A stretch of 64,000 nucleotides of DNA from an uncultured virus (IMG/VR IMGVR_UViG_3300049734_000160) (IMGVR_UViG_3300049734_000160), one strand, 5' to 3'; counted from the first letter of the stretch, positions 1 to 20,723 are shown. Numbers and translations: made by a program. The notes: generated by a model not told the origin, from the letters alone.

Positions 1-14
1 CCAAAGACCTCCTG

Positions 15-884: not shown

Positions 885-900
885 AAGGTAAGAGGAAGTT

Positions 901-3522: not shown

Positions 3523-3524
3523 TT

Positions 3525-3719
3525 ATGGCAGCAAACAACGGGCGGGCCTTGCCCGTCCGTCACATTAGACGAGACGAGCGAAGAAATCACGAGCCTGACT
3601 TGACAGGCCGTGATAAAGTGTCGCTCGAAGAAATCAGGTTGTACGTCGCTGATTTACGCCGGCGACTGAACAGCCTCGATGCGATGCTCAAGCGAGCACA
3701 AGACCCGACAACTGAATAA
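3525..3719 (+). CDS. small coiled-coil hypothetical protein
   Basis: 64-aa ORF starting 2 nt after the portal stop. Confidence 0.5.
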   Translation: MAANNGRALPVRHIRRDERRNHEPDLTGRDKVSLEEIRLYVADLRRRLNSLDAMLKRAQDPTTE

Positions 3720-3770
3720 TAGGATCTTGGAATAGTTTCCACGTCCGCCTTTCCCAGCTTGGGTTCGTCC

Positions 3771-3801
3771 CCGCTGTAGAAACGGCGGGCTTTTTGTTTT
3801 T
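3771..3801 (+). terminator. hairpin plus T-tract upstream of the scaffold gene
   Basis: CCGCTGT-AGAA-ACGGCGG followed by GCTTTTTGTTTTT. Confidence 0.45.
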
Positions 3802-3811
3802 GGGGTTCTGT

Positions 3812-5293: not shown

Positions 5294-5309
5294 GTAACGG
5301 AGGCACCCA

Positions 5310-6677
5310 ATGGCTGCAACCCTCAGCACGACTGTAATAAATGCCATTCTGCCCAAACTCATTGAGGACGGGCGGAACTTGATCGTGGCCCAATCCCGAT
5401 TTTTTCAGGAAATGGACAAGGTCAAGAAGGTAAACAAGATCAACCCCGGCGGCGCTTATACGCCCTATCAAGTTTCGGAAAACAACACCGCGTTTGGCGT
5501 GGCCGAAGGCGGCCCGATCCTGACCGGTGCCGCGCCCGAGTTCGCCATGGGCGTGGTCCAACTGCGCCAACACTGGAGCAGCATGAACTGGACCGGTTCG
5601 GTGGAGCGCATTTCTAACGAAGTGCTCACCCAGTTCAAAGCCGATCCAACTTACGAAGGTAAGTCTGTGGCGCATCTGACCAACAACCAGCTTACTCGCC
5701 TCGCCCAAAACGAAGCGGTACGGCAGGTGGTCGACTCGACGCTCAAGATGTACGCGCGCCGCGAAAACTATTTCGCGCTGCAGGGCACGGACAAGAGCGC
5801 GATCGGTGTTATGACGGCGAACATCGCCGGCGCCGGGCTGCAGTTCTCCTGGGATACGACTCTCCAGGGCAACCGCATGTTTTCGAAGGACCAGCAGATT
5901 CAGATCTTTAGTCCGGGCGGCGTGCAGCGCGTGGCCGGCCTCGCGACTATCGGCTCGTCGAAATACAACACGGTGCTTTCGGTGGACGACTCGGCCGCCT
6001 CGGGCGCCACTGGACCAGTGACCCTGGCGGAAGCGGGGCCAACCGACGCCGTCACCGGCGACACGGTCGTCTTTCGTAATTCCTACGGCCTGATGCCGCA
6101 GGGATTCATTTACTACGTCGACGACACGGGCACCTACAAAGGCATCACCCGTTCAACCAACCCGAAGCTCTTCTCGTCGGTTATTAACCGGCTGACGGGT
6201 ACGCCTTCGATCTCCCCGGCTCACATTCGCGAAACGCTTTCGCTGATGGAGTCGAAGATGGGTTACGGCGTTCCGTTCCAGATGCAAATCTGGCTGAACA
6301 AAACGCAAACCTATAACTGGGAGAGCCAGGTTTACCAGAGCCCGTTTGTGCGCAACATCGGGCCAGGAAAAGTCACCGGCGTCGACATGGCGGTAGGGGA
6401 AATGTACTGGGACGGCCACAAGTTTATGACCGACCCGGACGTCCCTCCCGGACACGTCAACTTCGTCAACTTCCTGACCTGGAGAAAGATCGTGCAGACA
6501 CCGACGCAGCCCTATCAATTCGATTCGGGCAGCTACGTGGTCAACCCGCTCAACTCTTACGGCGAGCGGTTGGACTCACGGCAGTCAACGATCTTCTCCG
6601 AGTACAACTGGGACTGCGTTGACCCGCGTTCGAACGGACGCATTGAAGGGTTGGCGTACAACCGCATTCACATCTAG
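5310..6677 (+). CDS. major capsid protein (HK97 fold)
   Basis: 455 aa, GGAGG SD, synteny, capsid-like C-terminus (EYNWDCVDPRSNGRIEGL), hairpin downstream. Confidence 0.8.
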   Translation: MAATLSTTVINAILPKLIEDGRNLIVAQSRFFQEMDKVKKVNKINPGGAYTPYQVSENNTAFGVAEGGPILTGAAPEFAMGVVQLRQHWSSMNWTGSVERISNEVLTQFKADPTYEGKSVAHLTNNQLTRLAQNEAVRQVVDSTLKMYARRENYFALQGTDKSAIGVMTANIAGAGLQFSWDTTLQGNRMFSKDQQIQIFSPGGVQRVAGLATIGSSKYNTVLSVDDSAASGATGPVTLAEAGPTDAVTGDTVVFRNSYGLMPQGFIYYVDDTGTYKGITRSTNPKLFSSVINRLTGTPSISPAHIRETLSLMESKMGYGVPFQMQIWLNKTQTYNWESQVYQSPFVRNIGPGKVTGVDMAVGEMYWDGHKFMTDPDVPPGHVNFVNFLTWRKIVQTPTQPYQFDSGSYVVNPLNSYGERLDSRQSTIFSEYNWDCVDPRSNGRIEGLAYNRIHI

Positions 6678-6705
6678 GGACGTGGTCCATAGCCACGGTG
6701 CCGCA

Positions 6706-6733
6706 GGGGCGGTTTGTGGATTCTTCCGCCCCT
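6706..6733 (+). terminator. GC-rich hairpin after the capsid gene
   Basis: AGGGGCGG...CCGCCCCT inverted repeat; weak T-tract. Confidence 0.4.
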
Positions 6734-6749
6734 GTCCCTAGTTACAACC

Positions 6750-7493
6750 ATGGACCTGCGAGAGAAACAGCTTTACTACCGGTACAGCTACGGCTGGAGC
6801 TACAAAGAGCCGCCGCGGCTGGACAACTCCATTCATCGCGCTTTGCGAGAGATTGACCCGCGCTATCGGTTGATATGGGCCGGCGTGGCTGTCTATCGCG
6901 AGCAGGAAGGTGGGCCGGTGGTAGGGCTGCGCGGCGATCGCGACGCCACCAAACTGCTCTATGGGCAACTGACCGCACGCTACATCGACGCGCGCGTGAA
7001 GCAGTTTGATGGTTACAGCTTCAAGCTCGCGAAGAGCGGGCGCGAAAAGCGCGTTATGCGTGAGGACCTGATTCCGCGCAGCAAGCGCAAAATAGCGGTA
7101 GCGCATTTCGAGTACGTTCACTACGGACAGCTTTTCTGGATCCTCGAAGTCTATCTAACCAGCGAAGAGCTAATTCAAACCGGCTACTACCAGCAAGACG
7201 ATCCCAACCTCCCGACGCCTGGCGACTACGTTCACGTGCTGCACCTGCGCGGCCACGACGGTCTCTATCGCGAGCCCGATCGCGAATGGCTGCAGTGGTG
7301 GGCTGGGCGCCACTACGAAGCGATGAACACGCCGCTCAAGGAACTCTACGCCAAAGACAGAGCGGCCAGCGACGAGCGCCGCCAGGTCGAAGAGGAAGCA
7401 GAAGCGAAGCAGACCTGCGCGGACCCGGAGGACCTGTTGCGACTAACGATCGATGAGCCGTCGCTGTCAAAAAATCCCTATCTAACGAGGTAG
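6750..7493 (+). CDS. hypothetical protein
   Basis: ORF in the structural operon; ATG 6750 lies after the hairpin. Confidence 0.6.
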   Translation: MDLREKQLYYRYSYGWSYKEPPRLDNSIHRALREIDPRYRLIWAGVAVYREQEGGPVVGLRGDRDATKLLYGQLTARYIDARVKQFDGYSFKLAKSGREKRVMREDLIPRSKRKIAVAHFEYVHYGQLFWILEVYLTSEELIQTGYYQQDDPNLPTPGDYVHVLHLRGHDGLYREPDREWLQWWAGRHYEAMNTPLKELYAKDRAASDERRQVEEEAEAKQTCADPEDLLRLTIDEPSLSKNPYLTR

Positions 7494-7497
7494 CTTT

Positions 7498-8502
7498 ATG
7501 GAACCCAACCCACGAGTACAGGAACGGACCAACATCGCCGACGTGCTGCGCGAGCATGGCGGCGCGGGCGGCGTCATGCCTGATCTCTCCAGCACGATGA
7601 AGCGCGTTGAAAGCGTGAACACCGTCAAGTTTGTCTTTCATCCCTGGATGCCTATTCAGAACCTGGGACCGGACGGTTTCAACTTCAATGTGCATTACGA
7701 CGTGCTGCAGCGGCTCAAGCTCATCCCGATTCCGGTTTTCGATTACGCCAAGATCATTCCGCTCAGCAACAACTTCTCGCTGATGTCGGCGGTGGTTGGT
7801 GAGATTGGCGCTATTCCCGGCCGCAACCAGAACCGTATCGAAACGCTCATGCAGATGCCGACGACCAGCGTGATGGCCCTGCGCACGGCCTACGGCAAGT
7901 TCGGGCTGGTGGAGTTGACATCACTGGAGAGTTACGACACGGACACTTTGAACTACAGCTTTGACCTGTTCGATCTGTTGTTTCACGAAGCGACCTCGGA
8001 CATGGAGCGAAAGCTGGGCTACCGGCCACCCGGCTTAGTGCTCGAGGATTATCCGCACTGGCTGGACCATGTCGCGCCGCGGCTGGTCCAAGTACTGCAC
8101 AGCGAGAAGCAGTTACTTGAGCCCGACCGCGCGATGCAGTTGCTGAGTGAGATTCGTCAGAGTGTCAGCCTGGCCGAAGAGGCGGCGCTGAGTCCCTCGG
8201 TCGGCATCCTGCCCAAAACAAAAGAAGGTCTGAACATCACCGCGAATCGCGGCACCGGTGGCAAGACCCACCTGGACGCGCTGGATGAATGGTTACTGAA
8301 ACAGTACCCCTCGTTCGAAATGGATACGGACGTTGAGCGCGCGCGGGCCGCGATGCAAAACGCCATCGAAAGCAGCGGCCAGGGCAACCAGGAAGTGCTC
8401 TCAACGATGGTCCAAATGATCAAGCAGCAACAGACCACGCTGGATCTGCTTACCCAGTTCGTCACCAAGAAACCCACGAAGGCGTCGGCGTCGCCGGAAT
8501 AG
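7498..8502 (+). CDS. hypothetical protein
   Basis: 334-aa ORF, GAGG SD, tight packing. Confidence 0.65.
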   Translation: MEPNPRVQERTNIADVLREHGGAGGVMPDLSSTMKRVESVNTVKFVFHPWMPIQNLGPDGFNFNVHYDVLQRLKLIPIPVFDYAKIIPLSNNFSLMSAVVGEIGAIPGRNQNRIETLMQMPTTSVMALRTAYGKFGLVELTSLESYDTDTLNYSFDLFDLLFHEATSDMERKLGYRPPGLVLEDYPHWLDHVAPRLVQVLHSEKQLLEPDRAMQLLSEIRQSVSLAEEAALSPSVGILPKTKEGLNITANRGTGGKTHLDALDEWLLKQYPSFEMDTDVERARAAMQNAIESSGQGNQEVLSTMVQMIKQQQTTLDLLTQFVTKKPTKASASPE

Positions 8503-8519
8503 AGAAAGGACGGTACGCA

Positions 8520-8915
8520 ATGGGCTTTACGGGCGACGTGAAACTCGCCGCTAACCAGATCAAGACAATTCGCGAACTGGTCCAAGCGGCGATCAATACC
8601 CGCACTTACCCGAACGCTGCGGCTAAACAGGCCGCCTTTGACCGTGTGCCAACGGAGGTTAGTGAGCTTTACATCACACCGCGCACCGCGGCCCTCTTGC
8701 TAATTGATGCTTATGCCGGCGTGCTCAACGGCACGGTCAGCAACAAAGGCGACGGCGTCACCCTCGACACGACTTACTTTACGGTCGATACGAACGGCGG
8801 TAACGCTGTCTCTGCGGCCAAAGACGTAGGTCGTTACTACCGCAAAAAGAACATTGGCAATCTCGTCGTCTACAGCGGCGCGGTAGATGCCTTCATCGAA
8901 GTGGATTTCGAATGA
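8520..8915 (+). CDS. hypothetical (possible virion) protein
   Basis: 131-aa ORF with AAGGA SD. Confidence 0.6.
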   Translation: MGFTGDVKLAANQIKTIRELVQAAINTRTYPNAAAKQAAFDRVPTEVSELYITPRTAALLLIDAYAGVLNGTVSNKGDGVTLDTTYFTVDTNGGNAVSAAKDVGRYYRKKNIGNLVVYSGAVDAFIEVDFE

Positions 8916-8932
8916 GAGACGGAGGAAAGAAA

Positions 8933-9631
8933 ATGGAAACACATAAGGCTGACAGCAGCAGCAGGTTTGAACCGCCGAAGGGTGACGTCAAGAAGAAGAA
9001 GGGCCAAAGCGACAAGCCTGAAATCGGCAAGCTCTTCAAGCTCAAGCTGGGCGAGAAGGTAACGCTAACCGCAACGCCTGGTGGCGGCCAGGGCTCGGCC
9101 ATCAAGGCCGGCGAGCCGGGCCAATGGCAAAGCTCCAGCAATGCGCTAATCATCGACTCCGAGGACCTGACCGGCGATTCCGTGGAAGTGCTGGGCGCCG
9201 CGATTGGTCGCGGTGTCGTCAACTATCGCCAGCTACAGCCGCCGACTCCGGAACTGGTCGGCGCCGCGTCGCTTTTCCATCCCGGCTCCGAGCAGCGAGT
9301 CGCGCTCGATCATTCCTTCGGCGTCGGCTACGAGATCGAAGTCGTCGAGGACCCCGACGCGGACCCGGCCGAAACCGCCGCCGTGCATCCTTTCGATGGT
9401 CTCATTCCGGTGACGGAGTCACAGGAAGAGCCCTCGGAGAAAACGCCCTACGGCATGGGCCTGAATGACAAGCCGGTAGCGCCATATCCGGGCATGGTCG
9501 ACCCGCGCGACTATTCCAGCGTAGCGCGTCAGTCTGAGGACGCGGTAGCCAAGTCGCAGGAGCAGGACCTGGCGAAGCTGAAAGAGCAAACCGCGAAGGG
9601 TGAGAAGAAAGACGACAAAGACAAAAAGTAA
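8933..9631 (+). CDS. hypothetical protein with beta-rich/Ig-like core
   Basis: GGAGG SD before ATG 8933; abuts the next gene. Confidence 0.55.
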   Translation: METHKADSSSRFEPPKGDVKKKKGQSDKPEIGKLFKLKLGEKVTLTATPGGGQGSAIKAGEPGQWQSSSNALIIDSEDLTGDSVEVLGAAIGRGVVNYRQLQPPTPELVGAASLFHPGSEQRVALDHSFGVGYEIEVVEDPDADPAETAAVHPFDGLIPVTESQEEPSEKTPYGMGLNDKPVAPYPGMVDPRDYSSVARQSEDAVAKSQEQDLAKLKEQTAKGEKKDDKDKK

Positions 9632-10393
9632 GTGGAAACCACCCAGCAAATCATTAGTGCGGTCTATACGCTGTTGCGTCGGCCCAGTGAACTAAAGCTG
9701 CACCCGGACGACGTCAAGGACCTGGTTAATGATGAACTGCGCGGTCGGATACAGGATCTGGATCTCGTGGGGCGCGAACAGCGCACGCGCTCTCGCGAGG
9801 TCCACATCGACATGGACGAGACCGATTACCGGGTGCACCTATCTGGGGTCCCTGACTTTGAACCCGTAGGCCTCGAGTATTCGGCCCTCGCCTTTGCGGG
9901 TACGGAGTATTGGGCGGAGGCGACGCTGGTCAACATTCGCAGTTGGACCAGCCAGTACAACATTGCTGACAACCGCGTGCTCGGAGCGTTCTACGGTTCG
10001 CTGACGTTGCGTGAGGGCAGCTATCTGCGATTGAACCTGGACCCACAAGCGGTCGGCGATTATCGCTGGCGCCTTACTTATCGTGAGCCGCTAGTACGCA
10101 TCGTGCAGGAAGGCGAGCGCCCGCCGATTCCGACGAACTTTCTACCGATCATAAAAATCGCCGCCGCACTCAAGGCGATTCCGATCCTGCAAGACAACTC
10201 GAAGGAATGGAAAGCGTGGGTGCAAAACACGGTGCCGATTTACACCGCGGATCTGTTGCGCTGGGAAGAGCGCTGGCGCGTCTATCTCGAAACTTCCGCT
10301 GAACCACCAACGCAACCGATGAAATCGTTCAACTCTTTCCGGCGCTTCTTGCGGCGGAGCACTCGGGGCTATCTGCCACGGCAATGCGGTTAG
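9632..10393 (+). CDS. head-tail adaptor / tail ring protein 1
   Basis: 253 aa; N-terminal helix T.QQIISAVY.LL typical of adaptor/tubular-A proteins; synteny. Confidence 0.55.
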   Translation: METTQQIISAVYTLLRRPSELKLHPDDVKDLVNDELRGRIQDLDLVGREQRTRSREVHIDMDETDYRVHLSGVPDFEPVGLEYSALAFAGTEYWAEATLVNIRSWTSQYNIADNRVLGAFYGSLTLREGSYLRLNLDPQAVGDYRWRLTYREPLVRIVQEGERPPIPTNFLPIIKIAAALKAIPILQDNSKEWKAWVQNTVPIYTADLLRWEERWRVYLETSAEPPTQPMKSFNSFRRFLRRSTRGYLPRQCG

Positions 10394-10398
10394 CGCCG

Positions 10399-10442
10399 TG
10401 AGTCGATTGTGAGCCGATTCTGAGTCGATTCTGAGCCGATTC
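10399..10442 (+). repeat. four tandem 11-bp units TGAG(T/C)CGATT(G/C)
   Basis: read directly; fills the intergenic gap. Confidence 0.95.
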
Positions 10443-10446
10443 GAAA

Positions 10447-11214
10447 ATGCCATACGCTGATGTAGACAGGGTTGAGAATCACATTACGGACATTCTCAAT
10501 GCGGTGGCGGCCTGGGGCGGTGTCATTGCCAGTAAGCGCCGCTCGCATGAGGCTGTTACGCAAGCCCGGATCGAGTCGGGCATGGAAGTTCTGCGCGCCA
10601 TCGCCAGCAACCCGCGCAACAGTTATCACGGTGGTCTCGCTGTCCTGGTTTCCGTCGCGCACAACCAGAAGCTGCCCGCCTATGACGGTGAGCCCGGCAT
10701 TCCACTAATTCAAACCTTCGAAGATTACCCCGTGGTCCCATTGGGCGGCCCGGCTCCAGCAGTGACCTACGCGGGACCAGAAATCGCCGGTGTTCCGGCC
10801 GACCCGGACGAGATTGACATTTACCGGTGGCCGGGCGCGCAAAATATATATTCAGGCGGTTGGAGCGACGACCCGATACCGCACGACAAGGGGGACCTAC
10901 AACTAATGCCCTCGGAGGTCGCCGGCTTCTATGCGATCGTAAATGGCTATTTCAAGTTCACCGGCGCCTCCGCCAAGATTCCCTTAATCAACCTCACCTG
11001 GACCATGGCCGACCAGCAGGTCCCGGAGGTCTACGAACCCACGCTGGTAAAACTCTCGATTCCCAAGCTGGTGAAGGAAGGCGACAACCTGGCCGCCTAT
11101 GCAAACGCTTACGCGCAGGCCGGCTTAATCGACCTGCAGGAGATCCGCGCTGGCGCTGAGACCGTACCACCGGTGCCTAACGTCACGTTGGCGCAGAAAG
11201 CGGGGATTACCTAA
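10447..11214 (+). CDS. tail ring/adaptor-like protein 2 (paralog of the next gene)
   Basis: shares GEPGIPLI, PADPDEID, F.FTG.SA..PLI and QVP..Y.P.L motifs with 11214..11912. Confidence 0.6.
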   Translation: MPYADVDRVENHITDILNAVAAWGGVIASKRRSHEAVTQARIESGMEVLRAIASNPRNSYHGGLAVLVSVAHNQKLPAYDGEPGIPLIQTFEDYPVVPLGGPAPAVTYAGPEIAGVPADPDEIDIYRWPGAQNIYSGGWSDDPIPHDKGDLQLMPSEVAGFYAIVNGYFKFTGASAKIPLINLTWTMADQQVPEVYEPTLVKLSIPKLVKEGDNLAAYANAYAQAGLIDLQEIRAGAETVPPVPNVTLAQKAGIT

Positions 11215-11912
11215 TGCCGCCAACCCGCAAAGAGCAGATCCGCCGCGTGGTCTACATGATTCTCGGCCGGCCCAGTCAACAGCGGCTGCATTACCGGGAC
11301 GTTGACACGCTCGTCATTCAAGCGGCCAAGCAGGTCTTACGCACGATCGTCAGCAACCCGAACCATCCGTACCTCTCGTCGCTGATGCAACTGGTAACGA
11401 TCGGCGATGGCGAATTCCTGCCGAAGCATGAAGGCGAACCGGGCATACCGCTGATCGTTCCGTTTCCCGGAGCCGAGCCGCGCGCGGGCATTCCGGCAGA
11501 CCCCGACGAAATTGATTCCTACAAAAACGATCTGACCAGTGGTCCCGGCTACAAAGCGATCTATTCCGGTGCCGTTGATCAACGGCCCGTTGCCTGTAAC
11601 GAAGCCACGGCCAAGGGGCGCGTCTCTCCGACCGCCTGCCGCTACTCAATTAAAGACGGGCTCTTTCGTTTCACCGGCGACTCGGCGCAAGTGCCGCTGA
11701 TCATTTTCGACACGGCCGCGGATCCAACAACGCAAGTGCCCACCGAATACGATCCGGCGCTGCTGCGACTGGCGATTAGCTGGATGGGCCAACCGTGGGA
11801 CAAGTTCTATCCGATCTGCGTGCGCTTCGCGCAAGAGTCGCGCGAGGACCTGCGCATGATTGCCGCCGGCAGTCGGAAAGTAAACCCGATCGAGATCGAA
11901 GCCGCCGCGTGA
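11214..11912 (+). CDS. tail ring/adaptor-like protein 3
   Basis: TAATG coupling; paralog of the previous gene, N-terminus resembles 9632..10393. Confidence 0.6.
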   Translation: MPPTRKEQIRRVVYMILGRPSQQRLHYRDVDTLVIQAAKQVLRTIVSNPNHPYLSSLMQLVTIGDGEFLPKHEGEPGIPLIVPFPGAEPRAGIPADPDEIDSYKNDLTSGPGYKAIYSGAVDQRPVACNEATAKGRVSPTACRYSIKDGLFRFTGDSAQVPLIIFDTAADPTTQVPTEYDPALLRLAISWMGQPWDKFYPICVRFAQESREDLRMIAAGSRKVNPIEIEAAA

Positions 11913-11918
11913 TGAACT

Positions 11919-12422
11919 ATGGTTACCAACTTTCGCGACCTTATCGACACGCCCGAGCGTCACGCGCAGGCGCAGGCCTGGCAGAAACACCTGCGCGAGC
12001 GTCTTGGCCCCGCCGTAATTAAACGTCCCGCTCAACTGCACTACATCTACGGAGTCCATCGCGAAAAGATGGTGTTGGACCAGCTTGCCCTGTTGCGCGA
12101 TTCCGCGGACACGGATGAGCGGGTCATTCACCTGCGCAATCAATGGGGCGAAGCCCTGGCGCTGCAGGGCCGTTTCCATGAAGCGGCAGAGGTTACGACC
12201 AGCATCCTGCACCGGCGCGAGTACCTGGCGAAAGGGGAGGCCATCGCCGCGCTCGGATCCGATTGCGAATGCCCGGTAGAAAAAGTGGTGCCATCGCCCA
12301 CGGACGCGAAGGGCGCGCGGCAGTCGAATCGCGTGCTGGTGGAGAGCATCTTTGACGGCGAGAAATTTATCGCGCTGTCCTTGTGTCTGAACTGCGGCGG
12401 CTTGAGGGCGAAGCAGGAATGA
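11919..12422 (+). CDS. hypothetical protein with TPR-like helix pair and CxC/CxxC motifs
   Basis: 167-aa ORF, overlaps the next start (ATGA). Confidence 0.55.
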   Translation: MVTNFRDLIDTPERHAQAQAWQKHLRERLGPAVIKRPAQLHYIYGVHREKMVLDQLALLRDSADTDERVIHLRNQWGEALALQGRFHEAAEVTTSILHRREYLAKGEAIAALGSDCECPVEKVVPSPTDAKGARQSNRVLVESIFDGEKFIALSLCLNCGGLRAKQE

Positions 12423-14416
12423 AACAGTCGCTGGCTCGCTGGTTAATGAAGGAATACATATCGGCTGCCATTCGCGGCCTGGGTGGCGATTACATGGCGC
12501 CCGGTTCGGAAAACGCCATGGTCACCGGCGAGAACTTCATCCGTGCCTTCCGTGGAGTGGAGACGGAGGCCGGCAAGGTGGGCTCTCGTCTTTACTTCAA
12601 CACGGCCCAGGAGTACGCCGGGCTGGGCACCGCCACTAACAACGGCACCGGCTCCGTTTTCCTGGCGCGCGAACTACTCTCCTACATCGGCAACGGCGAA
12701 GTTGCTTTCAAAGGCGCATTGCTGCCGGGCATCGTCGCAAATGACATTCTCACCTTTATCAAACAGACCGGCGGCGATTTTATTCCTGGCCCAACCACGG
12801 GACCCTTTCAAGCCGGCCACGGCCAACCCTCAGCGCCGATCATTTACCCGAAGAGCAATCCGTCAGCCGGCCAGTCGCTGATGGACGGAACGGTAGCGGT
12901 GAAGATCTGGCGCGTTTCGGATATCACCGGACAAGTTTCGCTCGCGTCGCTTCCTTCGAACGTGTTGACGCTCACGGCGCAGAGCGTGATCGTGCAATTC
13001 CCGTTGGCGGATTTCAACGGGCAGACGCACTGGGGCATCGGCGTACCGAAGATCGGCTTTGATATCTATGGTGTGTTTTACGAACTGCCGATCAACCTGC
13101 AGGGCGAAGTCGCCGAAAGCGTGCTCGCCTATCAGCGCACCGTCACCGGCGCCTCGATTGCCGACACTACTAACATCGTCGACGTCACCGACCCCGACAC
13201 AGTTGATCAATTTACCAGCGCCGATATCGGGCGGCAGATTTCCTTCGGGGCGTTTACCAGTTGGATTACGGCTATCAACTCGCCCACGCAGGCGGTCGTG
13301 AGCGGTACGAATACTTCCGGCTCGGCCATTAGTGGTACGGCGACGGTGGTCCATGCCGTTGAAGGCATCACCCGAGCGATTGAGATAAGTTGGACCAACG
13401 GCGCGTTAATTCAGCAAGCGCTAGTTCCGGAGCGAGCTTTCCCGCCATCGCCGGGCCAGTTCGCCGGCGCGGCTAATGATGTCTGGTGGGTCGACTCCGA
13501 CGGCATCATCTACGTCGGCGAGCCCGGCCAGGTAGGATCGTTCCCTCCGTCGAACGCGATTTTTGCTAACGAGCGCGCCGTTGCCTATCTGCCGGGCGGC
13601 GATGGCCTCACCTTCCGTTTTGGTAAGCATTCAATGGGCGTCATGTCCTACGTGGGCGGCTCACCCGCACTCGAGTATCAGGAGATCTGGCGTGACCTGG
13701 GCATCAGCTATCCGCAGAACGCCGCGCGCGGCTACGGTGGGCGCTTGCTCTTGTGGCTGGGGCGACCCGCGGTGGTCCAGGGCTCACTGGAGCCCGACTA
13801 TAACTATGCCAACAAGGTGGTTGAGTTTGCCGATTGGGACGCGCAGCAAAGTGAAGCGACGCCGATCTGCATCGGTTACGACGGTCGTGGCGAGTACGAG
13901 GTCTGGTGTCTCAAGAAAAAGGTCATGTCCCTGTTCGTGCCGAAGCACGCCTGGTGTGCACCGATTGACCTCACGGACAAAGTGTCCGGTGACATCGTCG
14001 CGGTCACGACCTATCGCAAGCAACTCTATCTGACGACCAGCAACGGCGCCGCGCTGACGCGCTACAAGTTTGATGCCGGCACCGGCAGCGTAATGAAGGT
14101 GCAGACGTCGGACCAGACGCCGAACGGTTACGGCGCCACCATCACCGAACTATTGACACAAGGGCGCGTCGACAACCTGACGAACAAGATCAAGATTGAG
14201 ATCGTCTCGAACTACGACGACGCTAACCCGATTCTTTTGTATGAATGCTTGCCGCCACGCCTCGGGCCGCAGGTGTTCATCCCCGTCGAAGAGCCGAACA
14301 TCATTGATTCACGCGAGCATAGCTTGCGCTTAACGCTCACGAGCGCGGGCGGTGACGCCGGCTGGGATTATGCGGAGACCAAAGGCGAGACCAACGAAGT
14401 AAGGATACCGGCGTGA
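12419..14416 (+). CDS. tail nozzle / DNA-stabilisation (P22 gp10 / T7 gp12-like) protein
   Basis: about 665 aa, beta-rich, follows the adaptor genes. Confidence 0.55.
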   Translation: MKQSLARWLMKEYISAAIRGLGGDYMAPGSENAMVTGENFIRAFRGVETEAGKVGSRLYFNTAQEYAGLGTATNNGTGSVFLARELLSYIGNGEVAFKGALLPGIVANDILTFIKQTGGDFIPGPTTGPFQAGHGQPSAPIIYPKSNPSAGQSLMDGTVAVKIWRVSDITGQVSLASLPSNVLTLTAQSVIVQFPLADFNGQTHWGIGVPKIGFDIYGVFYELPINLQGEVAESVLAYQRTVTGASIADTTNIVDVTDPDTVDQFTSADIGRQISFGAFTSWITAINSPTQAVVSGTNTSGSAISGTATVVHAVEGITRAIEISWTNGALIQQALVPERAFPPSPGQFAGAANDVWWVDSDGIIYVGEPGQVGSFPPSNAIFANERAVAYLPGGDGLTFRFGKHSMGVMSYVGGSPALEYQEIWRDLGISYPQNAARGYGGRLLLWLGRPAVVQGSLEPDYNYANKVVEFADWDAQQSEATPICIGYDGRGEYEVWCLKKKVMSLFVPKHAWCAPIDLTDKVSGDIVAVTTYRKQLYLTTSNGAALTRYKFDAGTGSVMKVQTSDQTPNGYGATITELLTQGRVDNLTNKIKIEIVSNYDDANPILLYECLPPRLGPQVFIPVEEPNIIDSREHSLRLTLTSAGGDAGWDYAETKGETNEVRIPA

Positions 14417-14682
14417 GTGAGAAGAGCGAACTGATTCGCGAATTCCTGGAAACGCAGAACCCGGACGCGTTGTTCGTGGATGGCCACGAAGATGCGCTGG
14501 TCGGTATCGCTTATCGCTTTGGTCTCGAACCGCTGGCTTGCTACTCGATCGACAAGATTACCGAGAAGCTGCAGCAGGACGGCATGACCGAAGAAGAGGC
14601 GCAGGAATTCTTTGACTTCAACATCATTGGCGCCTGGGTAGGTGAGGGCACTCCTATTTTTGTCTGGCTGCCTGAAACGTAA
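14413..14682 (+). CDS. small acidic phage protein (DG.EDALVG...EEAQEFFDFNIIGAWVGEGTPIF family)
   Basis: 89-aa ORF overlapping the upstream stop; motif recalled from widespread phage hypotheticals. Confidence 0.7.
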   Translation: MSEKSELIREFLETQNPDALFVDGHEDALVGIAYRFGLEPLACYSIDKITEKLQQDGMTEEEAQEFFDFNIIGAWVGEGTPIFVWLPET

Positions 14683-16431
14683 ATGGTATTCAACCTCAAC
14701 GAGCGCGATGCGGAACTTGAGGGCTACGTCAAGCGTGGCGAGCTTGACGCCATGCGTGAGCAGATAATCTCTGAATTGCAGACCGGCCGCATCGTGGTGC
14801 CGCAGGCCCCGCTCGGACAACTCGTGTTTGCCGGCGGCACGAACCATTGCCCTAACAGCGATCTGTCCTATTCACTTATGGCCGCGACTGTTCCCGGAAC
14901 TTTGCCAGGAACGGCAGGCGATACGAATTTCGAAGCCTACCGTTTCTACCGGCAAGTGCAAGGAGCTTCCGTCGTAGTCGCGGCCGCCAACGCTTTGAAG
15001 TCCTCGGGCCATTCTCTCTTTGCTGCGAACGAAGGCGCGACGCCCGACATCCCGCGCTGGGATCGCGTTAGTGGCTGGATCGAAATCGGCGCCGCCGGCG
15101 CGACGCAGTACGACATAGCGGTGCAACTGCTGACGAAGATTGTTGGACCAGGGCAGCGCTGGTATGTGCGCTTTAAGCTGTCGGCACTGACGGCGGATCT
15201 TGTGCCAGGGAATGTTCAGGTGTACGCAGGCCTCTGGCATAAAACCGCTTCAAGTGAAGGGTGGGTGGGTGGCACAGCTTTTAATATCTCGCACCAGATT
15301 ATCGGTCTGCCTGGCACGCAGACGATTGAGTATCGCGTACTCGCCAAAACCGATTCAGGTCTGTCGATGCTGAGCAGCGTATTGACCATCACGAACGCGC
15401 CGAACACGCTATCGACAACGAACTACATCAAACTCTTCTACGGTGCCGGGCCGGGCTTCATCGAATTTCAGATCTTCAAAAAGGTCGGCACCGCTTACAG
15501 CCAGGTAGCGGTAATTCGCAACTCCACCGATCTGCAATACAACGACGTCGGGCGCCCGGGCACACCGCAAACGGGCTGGCCCTCGGCCAGCTACGCCGCA
15601 CCGCTGGCCTACGCGCAGAGCCGGAATGTTTTGATTGCGCCTCTGGGGCAGACCTGGAGCGGTAACGATCTGACGATTGACATACCGTCTACTTATGACT
15701 ACTCGCAGACTCTGAACGAGCAACAATTCCTGCGCTTTGGTTTGACGGCGCCGACGGCCGTAGCGCGGCAGATTGGTATGGACCGCGTTTGGTTTTCGAT
15801 GAGCTTTAACACCTGGGCGCCCGATGCGCTCAAGCTCCCGGACGGCACTACGCCGGTACCATCGATCAGCCCGACATCCGGCAACCAGGGCGGCGGTGGT
15901 CCGGTGTACCTGCCACCTGACGGCGGCAGCGGTCGCCCTACTTGTATTCGCGCGAATCTGCCGGTGTTGCTCTGGCGACAAGACCGGCGTCGGCGTAACT
16001 TCATCCCGTTCAACGAGACCGAAGTGGGCCAACGAGTCGTAGGCGATCGCAAAGACCCGTATGAGATCCTGCGCAAGCGCTTTGGTACCGCGTCGGAATA
16101 CCTGATGTTCCGCACGAAGAACGGCATCGTTTACGAATGCACCGCGGATCATCGCATTTGCGTCAACGTGGAAGAGCGACTATTTCGCCGGGCTGACAGT
16201 CTGGCGGTCGGCGATCGCGTGGCTACTTGGGTGCGTGGCCGCATCCGCATGACCGAGGTTACCAGCAGGGCGCTGGTACCCGAGGCCTGCGAGGTCGGTA
16301 CTTACGTGCTGCGGCACCCAGGCGGGGAAGTCGACGACGGTCACGGGCTCTACGTCGCGGGTCGCTCCTACAGTGAGGATCGAGGCGTCATTTCCAGCAA
16401 TATCAAGATGGAGTTCGGCGAGGCTTACTAA
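14683..16431 (+). CDS. tail protein with C-terminal Hint (intein-like) domain
   Basis: Gly/Pro linker then C421-IRANLPV, TADH block B, RADSLAVGDRV, terminal VISSN573. Confidence 0.75.
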   Translation: MVFNLNERDAELEGYVKRGELDAMREQIISELQTGRIVVPQAPLGQLVFAGGTNHCPNSDLSYSLMAATVPGTLPGTAGDTNFEAYRFYRQVQGASVVVAAANALKSSGHSLFAANEGATPDIPRWDRVSGWIEIGAAGATQYDIAVQLLTKIVGPGQRWYVRFKLSALTADLVPGNVQVYAGLWHKTASSEGWVGGTAFNISHQIIGLPGTQTIEYRVLAKTDSGLSMLSSVLTITNAPNTLSTTNYIKLFYGAGPGFIEFQIFKKVGTAYSQVAVIRNSTDLQYNDVGRPGTPQTGWPSASYAAPLAYAQSRNVLIAPLGQTWSGNDLTIDIPSTYDYSQTLNEQQFLRFGLTAPTAVARQIGMDRVWFSMSFNTWAPDALKLPDGTTPVPSISPTSGNQGGGGPVYLPPDGGSGRPTCIRANLPVLLWRQDRRRRNFIPFNETEVGQRVVGDRKDPYEILRKRFGTASEYLMFRTKNGIVYECTADHRICVNVEERLFRRADSLAVGDRVATWVRGRIRMTEVTSRALVPEACEVGTYVLRHPGGEVDDGHGLYVAGRSYSEDRGVISSNIKMEFGEAY

Positions 16432-16432
16432 C

Positions 16433-16801
16433 GTGATTGAAGCTGAAATTTTACCAGTGGACCAGTGGCACCTGGTAGCGCCGATCGTGACCGGCGAGTT
16501 TAACAACGCGATGCCCGACACTCCGCGGCAGGCCATCTTCCTGGCGCTGCGGGAGGGAGATCGTTTGCTGGGCTTTACACAAATGGAAGTTTTACTCAAC
16601 GTCAATTCAATGTGGGTTACTCCCGAGCTACGTCACGGTCGCACCGTCTGGCAACTGATGCGCGCGAGCGATGATCTGCTACGGAGCATGCCAGGCTTTT
16701 CGGCGGTGGTGTTTAGTCACGGTGACCGTCAAGGCAATCTGCTCAGCCGTCTCGGTGGTCGACACCTGGGCGTCGCGGAGATTTGGAGAAAGGATTACTA
16801 A
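16433..16801 (+). CDS. GNAT-fold protein (T7 gp13-like position)
   Basis: MWVTPELRHGR motif-A-like segment and LLSRLGG; lies between tail and pilot genes. Confidence 0.55.
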   Translation: MIEAEILPVDQWHLVAPIVTGEFNNAMPDTPRQAIFLALREGDRLLGFTQMEVLLNVNSMWVTPELRHGRTVWQLMRASDDLLRSMPGFSAVVFSHGDRQGNLLSRLGGRHLGVAEIWRKDY

Positions 16802-16802
16802 C

Positions 16803-17498
16803 ATGAGCGGCGGCGGACGAGAAAAAGAAGAGAAGAAACGCGAAGATGAGTACCGGCGCCAGGCGCTCGCCCTGCAAGAGCGGACCACGGCGGCGATCGA
16901 GCAGGCAAGTAAACCCACGTCGTTCGAGACGACCCGCAGCGAATACGCCGGCAAGCTGGGAGACTGGCTCAGCGGCAAGGCTGGTCCTATTGATGTGCGC
17001 AAGATGCCGGGCGGGATGGTCGATCTTGATCTCTACGAGCAGGCGAAGCTGGCCCAGGACGCCGGTCGCATCGGTCGCGGTTACGGCACCATGGGCGAAG
17101 GCGCGAACGCGAACTACGTCGCCAAGCTGGGCCAGGAGGCGCAACTGCAGCGAGACCTCGCCGCCGCCGGCGCGCTCGAGGGGAATGTCAATCGTCGCAT
17201 TGCCGAAGGCCTTGGCGAAGGCTACAACCTCGCCAACATGATCGGGTCGCGCACCATGGGGCTCGCCGGTCTGGAAAGCGGCCGTGAAGAGAATGCGCAG
17301 TCGCGTTACCTGTCCTATTTAATGAGACCGAAGCAACCGAGCTTCTTGAAGCAATTGGCGATGAGTGCAGTGTCTGGCGCGGCGGGCATGGGCGCGAATA
17401 TGTTGACGGGCGGTATGAGCAGCATCTTTGGTGGCGCAGCGAGGGCCGGGGTTGGCGCCGGTGGCGGCGGGCTCGCAAGGATAGCGGCGGGCTGGTAG
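16803..17498 (+). CDS. DNA pilot / ejection-like internal virion protein
   Basis: Ala/Gly/Gln-rich helical protein with Gly-rich hydrophobic C-terminus. Confidence 0.55.
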   Translation: MSGGGREKEEKKREDEYRRQALALQERTTAAIEQASKPTSFETTRSEYAGKLGDWLSGKAGPIDVRKMPGGMVDLDLYEQAKLAQDAGRIGRGYGTMGEGANANYVAKLGQEAQLQRDLAAAGALEGNVNRRIAEGLGEGYNLANMIGSRTMGLAGLESGREENAQSRYLSYLMRPKQPSFLKQLAMSAVSGAAGMGANMLTGGMSSIFGGAARAGVGAGGGGLARIAAGW

Positions 17499-17500
17499 CT

Positions 17501-17722
17501 ATGGCACGTAAGCGCGCAACAAAATTTCTCGCCAGCTATTATCACGATGGCTCGTGGTGGACCCTGGAATTCTTCGCCGCCGATATGGCGGACGCGGAAG
17601 TAATCTGCAAGGCGCACAGCCTGCAACTGGACGGGGAATTCATTGCTGCGATTCCGGCCGTGAGTGGGGCCTGGTTTCCGAACTTTATTATTTGGCTGAG
17701 GAATTGGATTGCGAATCATTAG
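17501..17722 (+). CDS. hypothetical protein
   Basis: 73-aa ORF 2 nt after the previous stop. Confidence 0.55.
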   Translation: MARKRATKFLASYYHDGSWWTLEFFAADMADAEVICKAHSLQLDGEFIAAIPAVSGAWFPNFIIWLRNWIANH

Positions 17723-18044
17723 GTTTGGCCGCGCACTTTAAGCAGACCTTTTTTATGAACGCCGGCAAGTCGGGCCGGTGCTGAATGCCGCCGCCACACT
17801 CGGCGCAAACCGTGAAAACATTGTCCGCAAAAATATATTCTTGCGCGCTAATGCAGATGGCGATCGTTTCCTCATCGGGTCTCGGTTGCGGTATCTCATC
17901 CACGATCTCTACGCCCAGTTCGCGCAGCATCATTTCCGTGATTCCAATTTCTGATAGTTCTTTCATCTGAGCCCGCGCTATCCGAGTCGAGACGCCGCGC
18001 GCGCGCATATCGCTGACCATCTTTTTGAAATCTTCGAGGCTCAT
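17688..18044 (-). CDS. hypothetical protein with CxxC...CxxC zinc finger
   Basis: 118 aa; ATGA coupling with the upstream gene. Confidence 0.6.
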   Translation of the reverse strand: MSLEDFKKMVSDMRARGVSTRIARAQMKELSEIGITEMMLRELGVEIVDEIPQPRPDEETIAICISAQEYIFADNVFTVCAECGGGIQHRPDLPAFIKKVCLKCAAKPNDSQSNSSAK

Positions 18045-18388
18045 TGCTTCTTAAAAGGCTGCAGGCATAAACCGCAACGGCCGTTTGTCTCGCACGTTAA
18101 GCAGTAGAGGGCGCTGTCACTTTCGTGGGTATCGTCATGCGGTGGCGGGGCGTCGGCGCGCGGCAGGTGAAGATCAATAAAGTCAGTAAGCGCCCGTGAA
18201 CCGACGATGAGGGGGCAACGGTCGCCGTCAACCTCCACGCCCTGGGTTTCCATCATGCAGGGCGCATGCTTGTGAATGATCAGCGCGCATTGATTGCCGT
18301 GAGTGTCAATTAACGGCCCGCGCTCGACCTCAAACAGCGAGTCGGACAAGAGGGCAACTGCGCTTTTCCCATAAAACGGACAGGACAT
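18041..18388 (-). CDS. Cys-rich hypothetical protein (MSCPFYG...)
   Basis: ATG 18388 preceded by AAGGA SD. Confidence 0.6.
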   Translation of the reverse strand: MSCPFYGKSAVALLSDSLFEVERGPLIDTHGNQCALIIHKHAPCMMETQGVEVDGDRCPLIVGSRALTDFIDLHLPRADAPPPHDDTHESDSALYCLTCETNGRCGLCLQPFKKQ

Positions 18389-18390
18389 CT

Positions 18391-18720
18391 TTATTCCTTT
18401 GGATAGCGGTTCGCGCGGCCGGCGTTCATTGCCCTGGTCCAGCCGATGGGCTCGCCCGCGTTCGTGTCGCGATCCCACCCCGTTATATCCCATTCGAGAA
18501 ACTGGCGCACGGCCAGCGTGACATCCTCGTATCACCAGCCGTCGGTCCAGACGGATGCGGTAACCGAAGGGCTCACGATGAGCCGGGCGCGGCCAAAGGT
18601 CAGCGGCACCAGGTCGATAACCCGGCCATCCTCGACAAAGCGCGTGCGATAGCTGCCGCGCTCGTTGAGCAATCCCATGTTCTTTAAGCGTTCCATCCGT
18701 CGCTGTACCTCGTTCATCAT
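18391..18720 (-). CDS. candidate selenoprotein (109 aa) via read-through of in-frame UGA at 18532-18534
   Basis: frame continues ...WTDGW*YEDVTLAVRQFLEWDITGWDRDTNAGEPIGWTRAMNAGRANRYPKE to TAA 2 nt before the next ATG; SECIS-like hairpin follows the UGA. Confidence 0.65.
18495..18534 (-). promoter_or_regulatory. bacterial SECIS-like stem-loop
   Basis: UGA-UA-CGAGGA-UGUCAC-GCUGGC-CGUGC-GCCAGU-UUCUCG; apical loop 20 nt after UGA with GU at loop positions 2-3. Confidence 0.55.
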
Positions 18721-20072
18721 TTGACTAGCGTGAGCTTCTGTTTCCGCGCCGCGCGCAAGGCCTTCTTCTTCGCCGCCTGAACCTTCTCGGCATGAGCACG
18801 CTGTCGTTGCGCGTCGACTTCGTTATCCAGGCCTATATATTGTTTGGTCATTTCGATGCTCTTGTGACCGAGCAGCCGCGAAATATCCAATAACTCCACG
18901 CCAGCATCATAATAAAGCCTCGTGGCGCCTGTGCGTCGCAGGTCTTTCAGGGTGATCTTCTCTACGCCCGCGAGTCGTTTGGCGGTGCCCCAGGCCCGGC
19001 GCGGACTCTGCAGACGCTCATTGTCATAATATTTTGGTCCGCGCTCGCGGTTGTCCGCTATCCTGATCGCCTTCAAAGGGAACATAAAATCATCGTCCCT
19101 AAGATTGTGCCGCTTAATCCAGGCGTCGATCTCTTTTGCTAACTCATCTGTGACGCCTATCGACCGCTCCCGTCTCACCTTGCTGGTCATGCGCTCGACT
19201 CGGAGGACTCGCTGCTTCCAGGCGCGCACCTTGAGCTTGAACAGTTCGGTCGTGCGCATACAGGTCTCGAGCAGCCCGAGAATGATCAAACGCAGGTGTT
19301 CGCGTCGCGCGTCACCCTCGCATGCCTTTAGTAGCGCAACCTCTTCCTCATAGGACAGGATCTCATTGCGCGGCTCTTCGCCTTTGCGATCGACCAGACC
19401 CGACGCCGGGTTAGAACTCATCCATCCCATTTCTATTGCGGCGCTGAACATGCGACGCAAAGTTTTGAGGCGATGATTGACGTCACACAAACTGCGCTGC
19501 CGCTGATGCGCTGTGTCCCTGTAGGCAAAGTGGACCATGAACAGGTCACGGCGCAAAGTCTCAAGCCACTTCGTCGTGATCTGGTCCAGGTAGGTGTTCT
19601 CACCGATTAGCACGCGCCACGATGCGCTATCCGGCGGGTGTGCGTCTTTTGGGTTATCGAAAAACTTTCTCCCGATGAAACACTTCGGCGTGGTGACGTT
19701 CGCGTAGCCCTTCTGCACGACCACACCGTTCACAATGATTTCCTGGACGTAGACCTCGCGCTCACAGTAGTCAGCCAACTCACCGAAGGTGTGACGCCGC
19801 ACACCCGGCGCGAGCGCGTGATTCGGTGCGAGCTTGCCGCCGCTGCGCGCTTCGTCGATCAGGCGATCGATTTGGCGGGCGACATCCTTCGCGCTGGTGA
19901 CATTCTTTTCACACGAGCGGCTAAAGTTTTTCTTTACGCCGCCGACCACGGCAGTCTTACGCACGTACCAGTTGATAGTCGTGCTTCCGTCCGCGAGCTT
20001 GATCGGGCGTTCTATAACGTAAGGCGGGAGCTTCTGTTTTGAGTTGGACCGTGCTATTCTTTTTGTGGTCAT
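18717..20072 (-). CDS. int: tyrosine recombinase / phage integrase
   Basis: TCMRTTEL (R), TSK (K), KDLRR (HxxR variant), LLGH, TKQY; N-terminal arm-binding-like domain; adjacent attP. Confidence 0.93.
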   Translation of the reverse strand: MTTKRIARSNSKQKLPPYVIERPIKLADGSTTINWYVRKTAVVGGVKKNFSRSCEKNVTSAKDVARQIDRLIDEARSGGKLAPNHALAPGVRRHTFGELADYCEREVYVQEIIVNGVVVQKGYANVTTPKCFIGRKFFDNPKDAHPPDSASWRVLIGENTYLDQITTKWLETLRRDLFMVHFAYRDTAHQRQRSLCDVNHRLKTLRRMFSAAIEMGWMSSNPASGLVDRKGEEPRNEILSYEEEVALLKACEGDARREHLRLIILGLLETCMRTTELFKLKVRAWKQRVLRVERMTSKVRRERSIGVTDELAKEIDAWIKRHNLRDDDFMFPLKAIRIADNRERGPKYYDNERLQSPRRAWGTAKRLAGVEKITLKDLRRTGATRLYYDAGVELLDISRLLGHKSIEMTKQYIGLDNEVDAQRQRAHAEKVQAAKKKALRAARKQKLTLVK

Positions 20073-20163
20073 TGTTGGTTGGAAAAAGCGGTGACCTTTC
20101 TAAGCGGGCGGGACTTGTATGCAGCGGGTCCCGCCTTTAATTTTGTAAGAGCTTCAAGTGCGG

Positions 20164-20192
20164 ACAATACCGCTCTAAAAAGCACCTGTCAA
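20164..20192 (-). promoter_or_regulatory. sigma70-type integrase promoter
   Basis: TTGACA-17 nt-TATTGT on the minus strand. Confidence 0.7.
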
Positions 20193-20197
20193 GCCAG

Positions 20198-20429
20198 TTT
20201 ACTGCGACACTCACTGCGACACTTTGTACCGCAAATCGGTCAAACTGACACGGTAAGCCACGGAACGCGACGAAGCAACTTTGCAATTTTGCTCAGGAAA
20301 ATTAAAGATTTGGATTGCCCGCGCTCGGGTTTGAACCGAGGGCCTTTCGCTCCGGAGGCGGAAACTCATACCGTTTTTTCTTAATAAAAACGCACAAAAA
20401 TTTTACTGCGACACTTACTGCGACACTTT
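20198..20429. mobile_element. attP: two pairs of arm-type repeats ACTGCGACACT flanking a tRNA-derived core
   Basis: tttACTGCGACACT(c/t)ACTGCGACACTtt at 20198-20225 and 20402-20429. Confidence 0.8.
20316..20360 (-). tRNA. 3' fragment of tRNA-Arg(CCG), attP core; not a complete tRNA
   Basis: CGC-CTCCGGA-GCGAA-AGGCC-CTCGG-TTCAAAC-CCGAG-CGCGGGC-A gives anticodon loop, T-arm and 3' acceptor strand; no 5' acceptor strand upstream. Confidence 0.85.
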
Positions 20430-20723
20430 TGACCCCCTGTACGGCATCCGGTCGCGTAGAATTCGGGGCGGACTCTTCCGCAATTCGCATAGCCTGGCTC
20501 ACGTACTTTTTGCTGCTGCGAGGTTGCCGCGAGATTGCCCCGCTGTGTACGCGAACGTACAAGGCTTTGCGGATCAGGTTCCCCGATTCGAGTAAGCTGT
20601 GATAGACTCCGTGCCCTGTCCTGTTGAGGAAGAGTCCGCACCCCCGCTACCGACTTTGCTTTGACGGGTTCACGTTATCCTCGTTCCCGAAATCCAAAGA
20701 CGAAAGAGAGGCAACAACATTTA

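Follow-up and report, generated by a model that had tools for sequence, protein, structure and literature searches.

Selenoproteins have been catalogued for bacteria, archaea and eukaryotes. In Escherichia coli fdhF the SelB-binding upper stem-loop lies 11 nucleotides (nt) from the UGA, with G23/U24 in its loop and a bulged U17, according to the available part of PMC8659212. To recognise such genes from sequence the field asks for TGA in at least two sequences, for at least two cysteine (Cys) homologues in the majority and, in bacteria, for a stem-loop with an apical G (PMC1088965, available part). The viral selenoproteins named in the available part of a 2021 review of recoding come from two poxviruses only, and are the glutathione peroxidases (GPx) of molluscum contagiosum and fowlpox (PMC8310308). 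Here we describe a stretch of 64,000 nt of DNA from an uncultured virus (IMG/VR IMGVR_UViG_3300049734_000160), referred to below in its full length as the window. Its gene at 18391-18720 on the minus strand very probably encodes a 109-residue single-domain selenoprotein in which UGA63 is decoded as selenocysteine (Sec), as judged from comparative sequence analysis.

Full-text literature searches returned no description of a bacteriophage selenoprotein. The word phage occurs 0 times in the available text of PMC1088965, a marine trace-element survey reports, in the part available, few or no viral sequences in selenoprotein families (PMC9402790), and the accessible text of the bacterial selenoprotein database and predictor papers contains neither phage nor virus (PMC13326102, PMC12013277). 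Phage tRNAs with the Sec-like 8/4 shape are Ser and His tRNAs in the available portion of PMC5389517.

The initial annotation of the window had described a 62-codon open reading frame (ORF) that stops at UGA, and a frame that runs on to a TAA just ahead of the next gene; both are present as described. The ORF lies on the minus strand, starts with the ATG at 18720 and reads ...WTDGW before the TGA at 18534..18532. Beyond the TGA the frame continues for 46 codons (YEDVTLAVRQFLEWDITGW...GEPIGWTR...PKE) to a TAA at 18393..18391, which sits 2 nt ahead of the ATG of the next gene (18388). The full candidate gene (18391..18720, minus strand) is composed of 62 codons, the UGA (Sec63), 46 codons and the TAA, with a 109-amino-acid (aa) product. 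At the predicted selenocysteine codon (18532..18534, minus strand) the 113 aligned IMG/VR loci have TGA or a Cys codon, and never TGG.

Relatives were collected in several ways. A word-indexed search of proteins recovered the 62-aa gene call of the window itself, which occurs on 12 contigs, and a 68%-identical protein that also terminates ...DGW. In back-translated scans the first relatives crossing the site, five IMG/VR loci and two contigs from metagenome-assembled genomes (MAGs) that match over residues 27-102, all read TGG TGA TAC GA (7/7), with the protein conserved on both sides; L006 and L007 are one contig in two bins. A metagenome scan yielded 30 further loci with an in-frame stop at the site in 28, one being cut by the contig end and one not reaching the site. 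The nearest relatives (L270-L272) have the in-frame stop and are 57-63% identical over residues 11-108, on both sides of the site. A DNA pattern anchored upstream (the FGRAR motif plus TGGTGATA) matched 31 IMG/VR loci, 28 of which are family members, all with an open and conserved downstream frame of 44-54 codons. A second pattern, anchored at the site and the C-terminal motif with a free third base in the site codon (TGGTGN TAY ... GARCC....GGNTGG...CG), gave 113 IMG/VR loci, all in-frame family members; the site codon was TGA in 51, TGC in 42, TGT in 20 and TGG in 0. No match to the window gene was found in the GenBank phage collection.

A HMMER search of 1.84 billion representatives returned 71 hits at E<=1e-3, five proteins of >200 aa being set aside before alignment. 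Cys predominated at the site among the 45 full-length homologues (28), ahead of Asp (5), Glu (4), Gln and His (2 each) and Met, Tyr, Arg and Leu (1 each); Trp did not occur. Sixteen further gene calls end exactly at the preceding aromatic residue (Trp) and five others begin right after the site; such N-terminal and C-terminal fragments, respectively, are what gene callers make of a UGA-containing gene. The family motifs are DGR..(V/I)PL.FGRAR.., W-[Sec/Cys]-Y-(D/E), A..A..W and EP.GW.R, in proteins of roughly 90-110 aa. The motif D.WCY...A...W...EP.GW, which the initial annotation gave with Cys at the site, is borne out by the 28/45 Cys homologues, and the homologue searches likewise recovered the alignment of Cys with UGA and the conservation on both sides of it that the initial annotation had proposed as a check. 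By these alignments the gene is a member of a large unnamed phage protein family with predicted Sec or Cys at one position. The C-terminal motif was also seen on its own (..FEEWDITGWDQGEPIYW..) at L008:3001-3072, in a MAG titled Arenimonas, where it is 57% identical to residues 74-101 and lies inside a different, longer frame of a bacterial contig, without the N-terminal half and without a UGA.

The stem-loop reported 3' of the UGA is present as well. With the U of UGA as nt 1, a lower stem CGAGGA (6-11)/UUCUCG (35-40) carries an upper stem GCUGGC (18-23)/GCCAGU (29-34) and the loop CGUGC (24-28). The upper hairpin of this predicted selenocysteine insertion sequence (SECIS), GCUGGC/CGUGC/GCCAGU at nt 18-34, occupies 18501..18517 on the minus strand with G25-U26 at 18510..18509, and the whole predicted stem-loop including the lower stem, nt 6-40, occupies 18495..18529 on the same strand (-14.2 kcal/mol). 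TGA and Cys forms can be compared directly, since their alignment is free of gaps from the UGA position to +48. The comparison set contained 56 distinct TGA and 57 distinct Cys sequences, after removal of identical 60-nt stretches and addition of the window and the earlier loci.

In the TGA forms the hairpin begins 12-13 nt past the UGA and holds G25-U26 in a small apical loop, mostly GGUC. At nt 24-27 the TGA forms have GGTC in 37, CGTG in 7 and AGTT in 5 of 56 sequences, and GGTC is outside the eight commonest tetramers of the 57 Cys forms. A stem 17-23/28-34 with at least six of seven pairs was found in 40/56 TGA forms against 0/57 Cys forms, and 77.2% of the cells of the named structure are paired in TGA forms against 49.3% in Cys forms. 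The covariation score of the TGA forms (0.424, shuffle mean 0.213) was reached by 0/500 shuffles, while the Cys forms served as a flat control (0.139, shuffle mean 0.163). Seven of the eight pairs vary on both sides in the TGA set, and all slid registers score lower. Under a generic, register-free rule (an uninterrupted stem of >=5 bp, a loop of 3-8 nt and a G in the first two loop positions) 48/56 TGA forms pass compared to 18/57 Cys forms; the loop starts at nt 24 in 44 of the TGA forms, and loop positions are scattered in the Cys forms. The G+C content of nt 10-45 is equal (0.677 in TGA and 0.678 in Cys forms), and the mean minimum free energy of the same segment is -13.1 in TGA against -9.7 in Cys forms (p = 1e-5). 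In the alignments, then, the hairpin is conserved with compensatory changes, accompanies TGA and is absent from Cys forms, and comparative sequence analysis shows a recoding signal linked to the UGA.

The same element has left its mark on the protein. G25-U26 is present in 49/56 TGA forms against 4/57 Cys forms, and a Val codon at nt 25-27 shows the same distribution (49/56 against 4/57). This Val codon is GTC in 37/49 TGA forms and the preceding Ala codon is GCG in 38/54, whereas Cys forms have K, L, A, I, R and others at the Val position. Since Val is forced by G25-U26 in the Sec forms, the RNA signal dictates protein sequence, as expected of an in-ORF bacterial SECIS. G25-U26 is constant in the subclade of the window, which keeps the upper stem (C)UGGC/GCCAG(G) and has CGUGC, GGUCA or AGUUA as its loop; the lower stem is specific to the window and is not kept in its closest relatives L270-L272. 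With a covariance model of the hairpin no other site was picked up in the window; the runner-up scored 12.5 bits (E = 0.42).

Conservation downstream of the UGA was assessed by codon position in 27 distinct sequences that were chosen on upstream features only, the downstream part being counted beyond the hairpin. Pairwise differences at the three codon positions were 0.47/0.39/0.61 upstream and 0.31/0.27/0.62 downstream of the UGA. The downstream frame is coding, as these differences follow the coding pattern. An AlphaFold2 run on the read-through product, with Cys in place of Sec and an alignment of 44 sequences, gave one compact domain (predicted local distance difference test, pLDDT, 90.6; predicted template modelling score, pTM, 0.79). 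The model has four strands; residue 63 lies in the strand 60-64, which is followed by a helix at 67-76 and by a conserved Trp/Pro-rich C-terminal part. The 62-aa product would stop mid-fold, because residue 63 is inside a strand of a single domain.

The position of residue 63 between strand and helix, together with the fact that the family is without a second conserved Cys, points to a single reactive selenol or thiol. We tentatively suggest from the model that residue 63, the probable active site, could act in redox chemistry, as a nucleophile or perhaps as a metal ligand; a role as metal ligand would fit the replacement of Cys by Asp, Glu, His or Gln in the wider family. Pfam had nothing for the read-through product, its halves or the 44 homologues. 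PHROGs gave only noise for the window product, and 7/44 homologues matched phrog_24748, which has no assigned function. Foldseek found nothing in the PDB at E<=1e-3. BFVD held a single uncharacterised Caudovirales protein (E = 1e-4), and the protein atlas, queried with the natural Cys homologue P0004, returned viral 'hypothetical' clusters only. Two structural candidates were considered and not accepted as relationships: an SPO1 capsid chain, the best match of the wide VIA-align comparison (Z 5.3), and WGR domains (VIA-align Z 3.6, root-mean-square deviation 6-8 Å).

We considered the hypothesis that the UGA is read through in a programmed manner without selenocysteine. In that case a near-cognate tRNA (Trp, Cys or Arg) would read the UGA while the hairpin slows or stimulates the ribosome, and the 62-aa and 109-aa proteins would be made at a fixed ratio. 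A UGA followed by a conserved hairpin and a conserved downstream frame would fit such a signal equally well. The sense codons found at the site are nevertheless TGC or TGT in 62/113 loci and TGG in none, and Trp is found in 0/45 homologues. Read-through of UGA in bacteria inserts mostly Trp. With only TGC and TGT among the sense codons of the 113 loci, and no Trp among the homologues, the residue must be Cys-like. By the same counts the site differs from read-through of the Q-beta A1 type, in which it does not matter what residue is inserted or Trp is acceptable. The loop sequence is moreover kept at synonymous sites (GTC 37/49, GCG 38/54, G25-U26 49/56), which suggests a sequence-specific binder such as SelB and not mere stability, and a chain of 62 aa would break off midway along a beta-strand of the single domain. 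We regard this explanation as improbable, although it is the strongest of the alternatives.

Less probable still is that the UGA is a true stop, so that the gene is split into a 62-aa protein and a separately started C-terminal peptide, or that the downstream conservation is a relic. The gene callers do split it in this way, as the 16 N-terminal and 5 C-terminal database fragments testify. Against this, the UGA is followed by UAC or UAU in 56/56 aligned sequences (TGATA is invariant), and no conserved start codon or ribosome-binding site comes after it in these sequences. Both parts are in one frame with zero spacing in 113/113 loci, and the Cys forms are continuous. Purifying selection downstream is at least as strong as upstream, and in the model one domain spans the junction.

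Errors in sequencing or assembly, a nonsense mutation of recent date and a reassignment of UGA throughout the phage have nothing in their favour but the in-frame stop itself. The counts already contradict them, namely TGA in 56 distinct sequences, the agreement of independent DNA and RNA-library contigs and, with respect to codes 4 and 25, the ordinary use of TGA as a stop together with the lack of a UCA-anticodon tRNA in what was searched. The initial annotation had called for an error check on reads. Positions 18532-18534 are covered with 0 differing letters by contigs of two further DNA runs, neither flagged as a possible source of the window, and of one metatranscriptome library; an RNA library may contain DNA, and metatranscriptome contigs do not prove transcription. 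Window positions 18200-19000 recur in contigs assembled from soil metagenomes (23 runs in 23 studies), with two metatranscriptome libraries among the runs, and the window phage is widespread in soil. TGA ends 29/76 ORFs of the window and 32/48 distinct Sec-form family genes. ARAGORN found no tRNA encoded in the window, and a tRNA with anticodon UCA was likewise missing from the examined tRNA arrays of two large related phage records. Neither selB nor tRNA-Sec was over cut-off in any of five large records of related phages; the best tRNA-Sec-like match in the large records (45.6 bits) is a tRNA-Tyr by ARAGORN and was rejected. Large phage records of 175 and 205 kb with a Sec-form gene (L172 and L175 behind L016; L173 and L176 behind L010) carry tRNA genes in dense arrays, as many as 18 within 3 kb.

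Exchange between Sec and Cys within the family was followed in a tree of 104 distinct sequences with the site masked, rows with short flanks and duplicates having been dropped from 114. The tree needs at least seven Sec/Cys changes, at least two of which are forced by well-supported branches. A Cys clade of 54 members (98% support) has three Sec forms nested in it, and the Sec grade contains three Cys forms. By this tree predicted Sec and Cys have been exchanged several times within the family. Sec-form and Cys-form loci are similar in G+C content (0.601 and 0.613, p = 0.41). A Cys form placed among Sec forms (L123:304-351) has kept GGTC at nt 24-27 with the stem pairing broken, and its sequence may represent a relic or decaying SECIS after a recent change from Sec to Cys.

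Some relatives are found in bacterial bins. The contig L007 belongs to a MAG titled Gemmatimonadetes (G002), in which profile searches detected selB at 343 bits (cut-off 242), selA at 523.8, selD at 379.8 and a tRNA-Sec at 66.3 (cut-off 47) adjoining selD. A profile search of 401 genomes of this phylum found the family in two only, G002 and G196, both with TGA forms. G196 has selB at 290 bits and a tRNA-Sec at 79.7, and the hairpin of its copy is GGCCGC-GGUC-GUGGCC. The selD of G002 (L178, G002:C3:14927-15847; L161) is itself a selenoprotein gene (..RCAG-TGA-AAKMGP..). Its downstream hairpin is weaker, with the loop CGGGC at nt 20-24, and is unlike the GGUC hairpin of the phage; this comparison was uninformative.

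The core claim of the initial annotation, a phage gene whose UGA is read as Sec through a 3' hairpin and the machinery of the host, is supported by the pairing of TGA with Cys, the TGA-linked hairpin and the downstream conservation. During infection or lysogeny, host SelB carrying Sec-tRNA(Sec) would bind the hairpin 12-13 nt past the UGA, which presents G25-U26 to it in the apical loop. SelB would then bring selenocysteine to UGA63, and translation would run on to the TAA. The phage would contribute the mRNA signal only, with selA, selB, selC and selD coming from a host that is assumed to be Sec-competent. Residue 63, at the end of a beta-strand before a helix, which is the usual spot for a reactive thiol or selenol, would probably be redox-active or nucleophilic. 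As to the sequence criteria of the field, UGA is conserved in far more than two homologues (56 distinct TGA sequences; 28/30 metagenome relatives), TGA/Cys pairs make up more than 50% of homologues (62 Cys and 51 TGA of 113; Cys 28/45), both sides of the UGA are conserved, and the stem-loop 3' of the UGA has G(U) in a small apical loop. By these criteria the family is a new predicted selenoprotein family.

Several observations weigh against this reading. The initial annotation had named Trp or another non-Cys residue at the site as evidence that would count against its claim; Trp (0/45) and TGG (0/113) are absent, which favours the claim, but other residues (D, E, Q, H, M, Y, R, L) occupy the site in 17/45 full-length homologues, which does not, and the residue is for this reason not indispensable across the wider family. 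The hairpin of the window alone is unexceptional (z = -1.28, with 19/200 shuffles folding equally well), so that the case for it must rest on the comparison. An uninterrupted stem of >=5 bp with an early loop G is lacking in 8/56 TGA forms, and Rfam gave no match at the site or near the integrase gene (int). Compared to fdhF, as described in the available part of PMC8659212, the phage GU is at nt 25-26 and not 23-24, and the hairpin has no evident counterpart of the bulged U17. On the side of the host, the attP tRNA from which the initial annotation had hoped to name it did not materialise: neither ARAGORN nor Rfam found a tRNA or tRNA fragment in the window, including 20073-20660 beside int. 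The window therefore offers no tRNA or attP clue to the host of its phage, whose Sec competence is assumed. The smaller MAG that bins the same contig as G002 (G001) has no sel gene over cut-off. Finally, selB is over cut-off in 119/151 genomes of the phylum of G002 (118/149 without the unpublished G064 and G104), and being so common its presence in both TGA-bearing genomes carries no statistical weight.

If the UGA is a selenocysteine codon, it might together with the hairpin form a host-dependent gate. Only cells with Sec competence and a supply of selenium would yield the full-length protein, and in others a 62-aa stump would result; Sec/Cys flips would track host switches, that is, they would follow switches between Sec-using and Sec-lacking bacteria. 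In this phage the gate would lie within the integrase operon, and it could also throttle the two Cys-rich genes next in translation and link a function on the side of lysogeny to selenium or redox status. We consider this extension unlikely at present, and the tuning of lysogeny by selenium or redox status, as put forward in the initial annotation, is speculation.

The coupling to the integrase is not supported beyond the window. In the window the tyrosine integrase (18717..20072, minus strand; PF00589 2.8e-20, phrog_1 1.2e-37) ends in an ATGA overlap with the start of the selenoprotein ORF. Among related loci this arrangement was not recovered. In 80 related loci with 5-kb flanks there was no conserved neighbour, the commonest neighbour family occurring in 13. 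A scan of 33 of the 51 ORFs of >=80 aa at 6 loci, 18 minus-strand ORFs that resemble high-GC shadows being left out, identified terminases, DNA methyltransferases, an HNH endonuclease and a minor tail protein as neighbours, and no integrase. Likewise, tblastn with the window's int and its two Cys-rich neighbours found no match at 6 related loci. By these comparisons the integrase operon arrangement is specific to the window phage. The family of about 139 aa that occurs in 13/80 loci (..PLYWKLNPDH..LAWGKDF..VSTIFLGIDH..LFETMWF..; L186-L265) lies within 4.5 kb at variable positions, and a serine-recombinase-like family is near the family gene in 6/80 loci.

Directly downstream of the selenoprotein gene is a Cys-rich gene of 115 aa (18041..18388, minus strand) with its own AAGGA Shine-Dalgarno sequence. 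It is followed, with an ATGA overlap, by a Cys-rich gene of 118 aa (17688..18044, minus strand), which is the last of the same-strand block. Neither has a Pfam or PHROG match, and both (17688-18388) contain CxxC-type pairs. The window carries repressor, helicase, primase, exonuclease, resolvase and tail fibre genes and comes from a temperate phage whose lineage is poorly sampled; most of the structural genes in the window have no family match. Positions 1-17500 (plus strand) hold about 17 large same-strand ORFs, presumably the virion module, with no Pfam match and almost no PHROG match, the sole exception being an 89-aa ORF similar to phrog_13182. Such an unmatched virion block indicates a very poorly sampled phage lineage.

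If the predicted selenocysteine is real, bacteriophages exploit the selenocysteine machinery of their hosts, and in viromes the family would provide a natural marker for hosts with Sec competence. Phage gene callers would, moreover, systematically split such genes, with at least 21 fragments among the 71 database hits. The compact SECIS (a 7-8 bp stem and a GGUC loop) would come with dozens of natural variants for engineering, and the Sec residue would mark the probable active site of a protein without a known fold match.

Among described systems, the poxvirus glutathione peroxidases resemble the present gene in being virus-encoded and wholly dependent on the Sec machinery of the host, and the fowlpox SECIS likewise lies in the coding region, as the available part of PMC8310308 describes it. 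Those genes belong to eukaryotic viruses, are captured cellular genes and use a eukaryote-type SECIS, whereas the present gene would work in a bacterial host with a bacterial-type element and belongs to a phage-specific protein family with no cellular counterpart recognised. The 'hypothetical' selenoprotein families from marine metagenomes in the available part of PMC1088965 rest on the same kind of evidence and are also without a function; they were compared by description and not by sequence. From E. coli fdhF the gene differs in being phage-borne, in belonging to a family without a Pfam model and with only an unnamed PHROG, and in that SelB binding is putative here. With fdhF-type genes it shares the in-frame UGA, the in-ORF hairpin with an apical G-U at a fixed distance and the Cys homologues (PMC8659212 and PMC1088965, available parts). 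As in other bacterial genes with an in-ORF SECIS described there, the RNA element constrains the amino acids that it encodes, here Ala-Val at the loop in 49/56 Sec forms.

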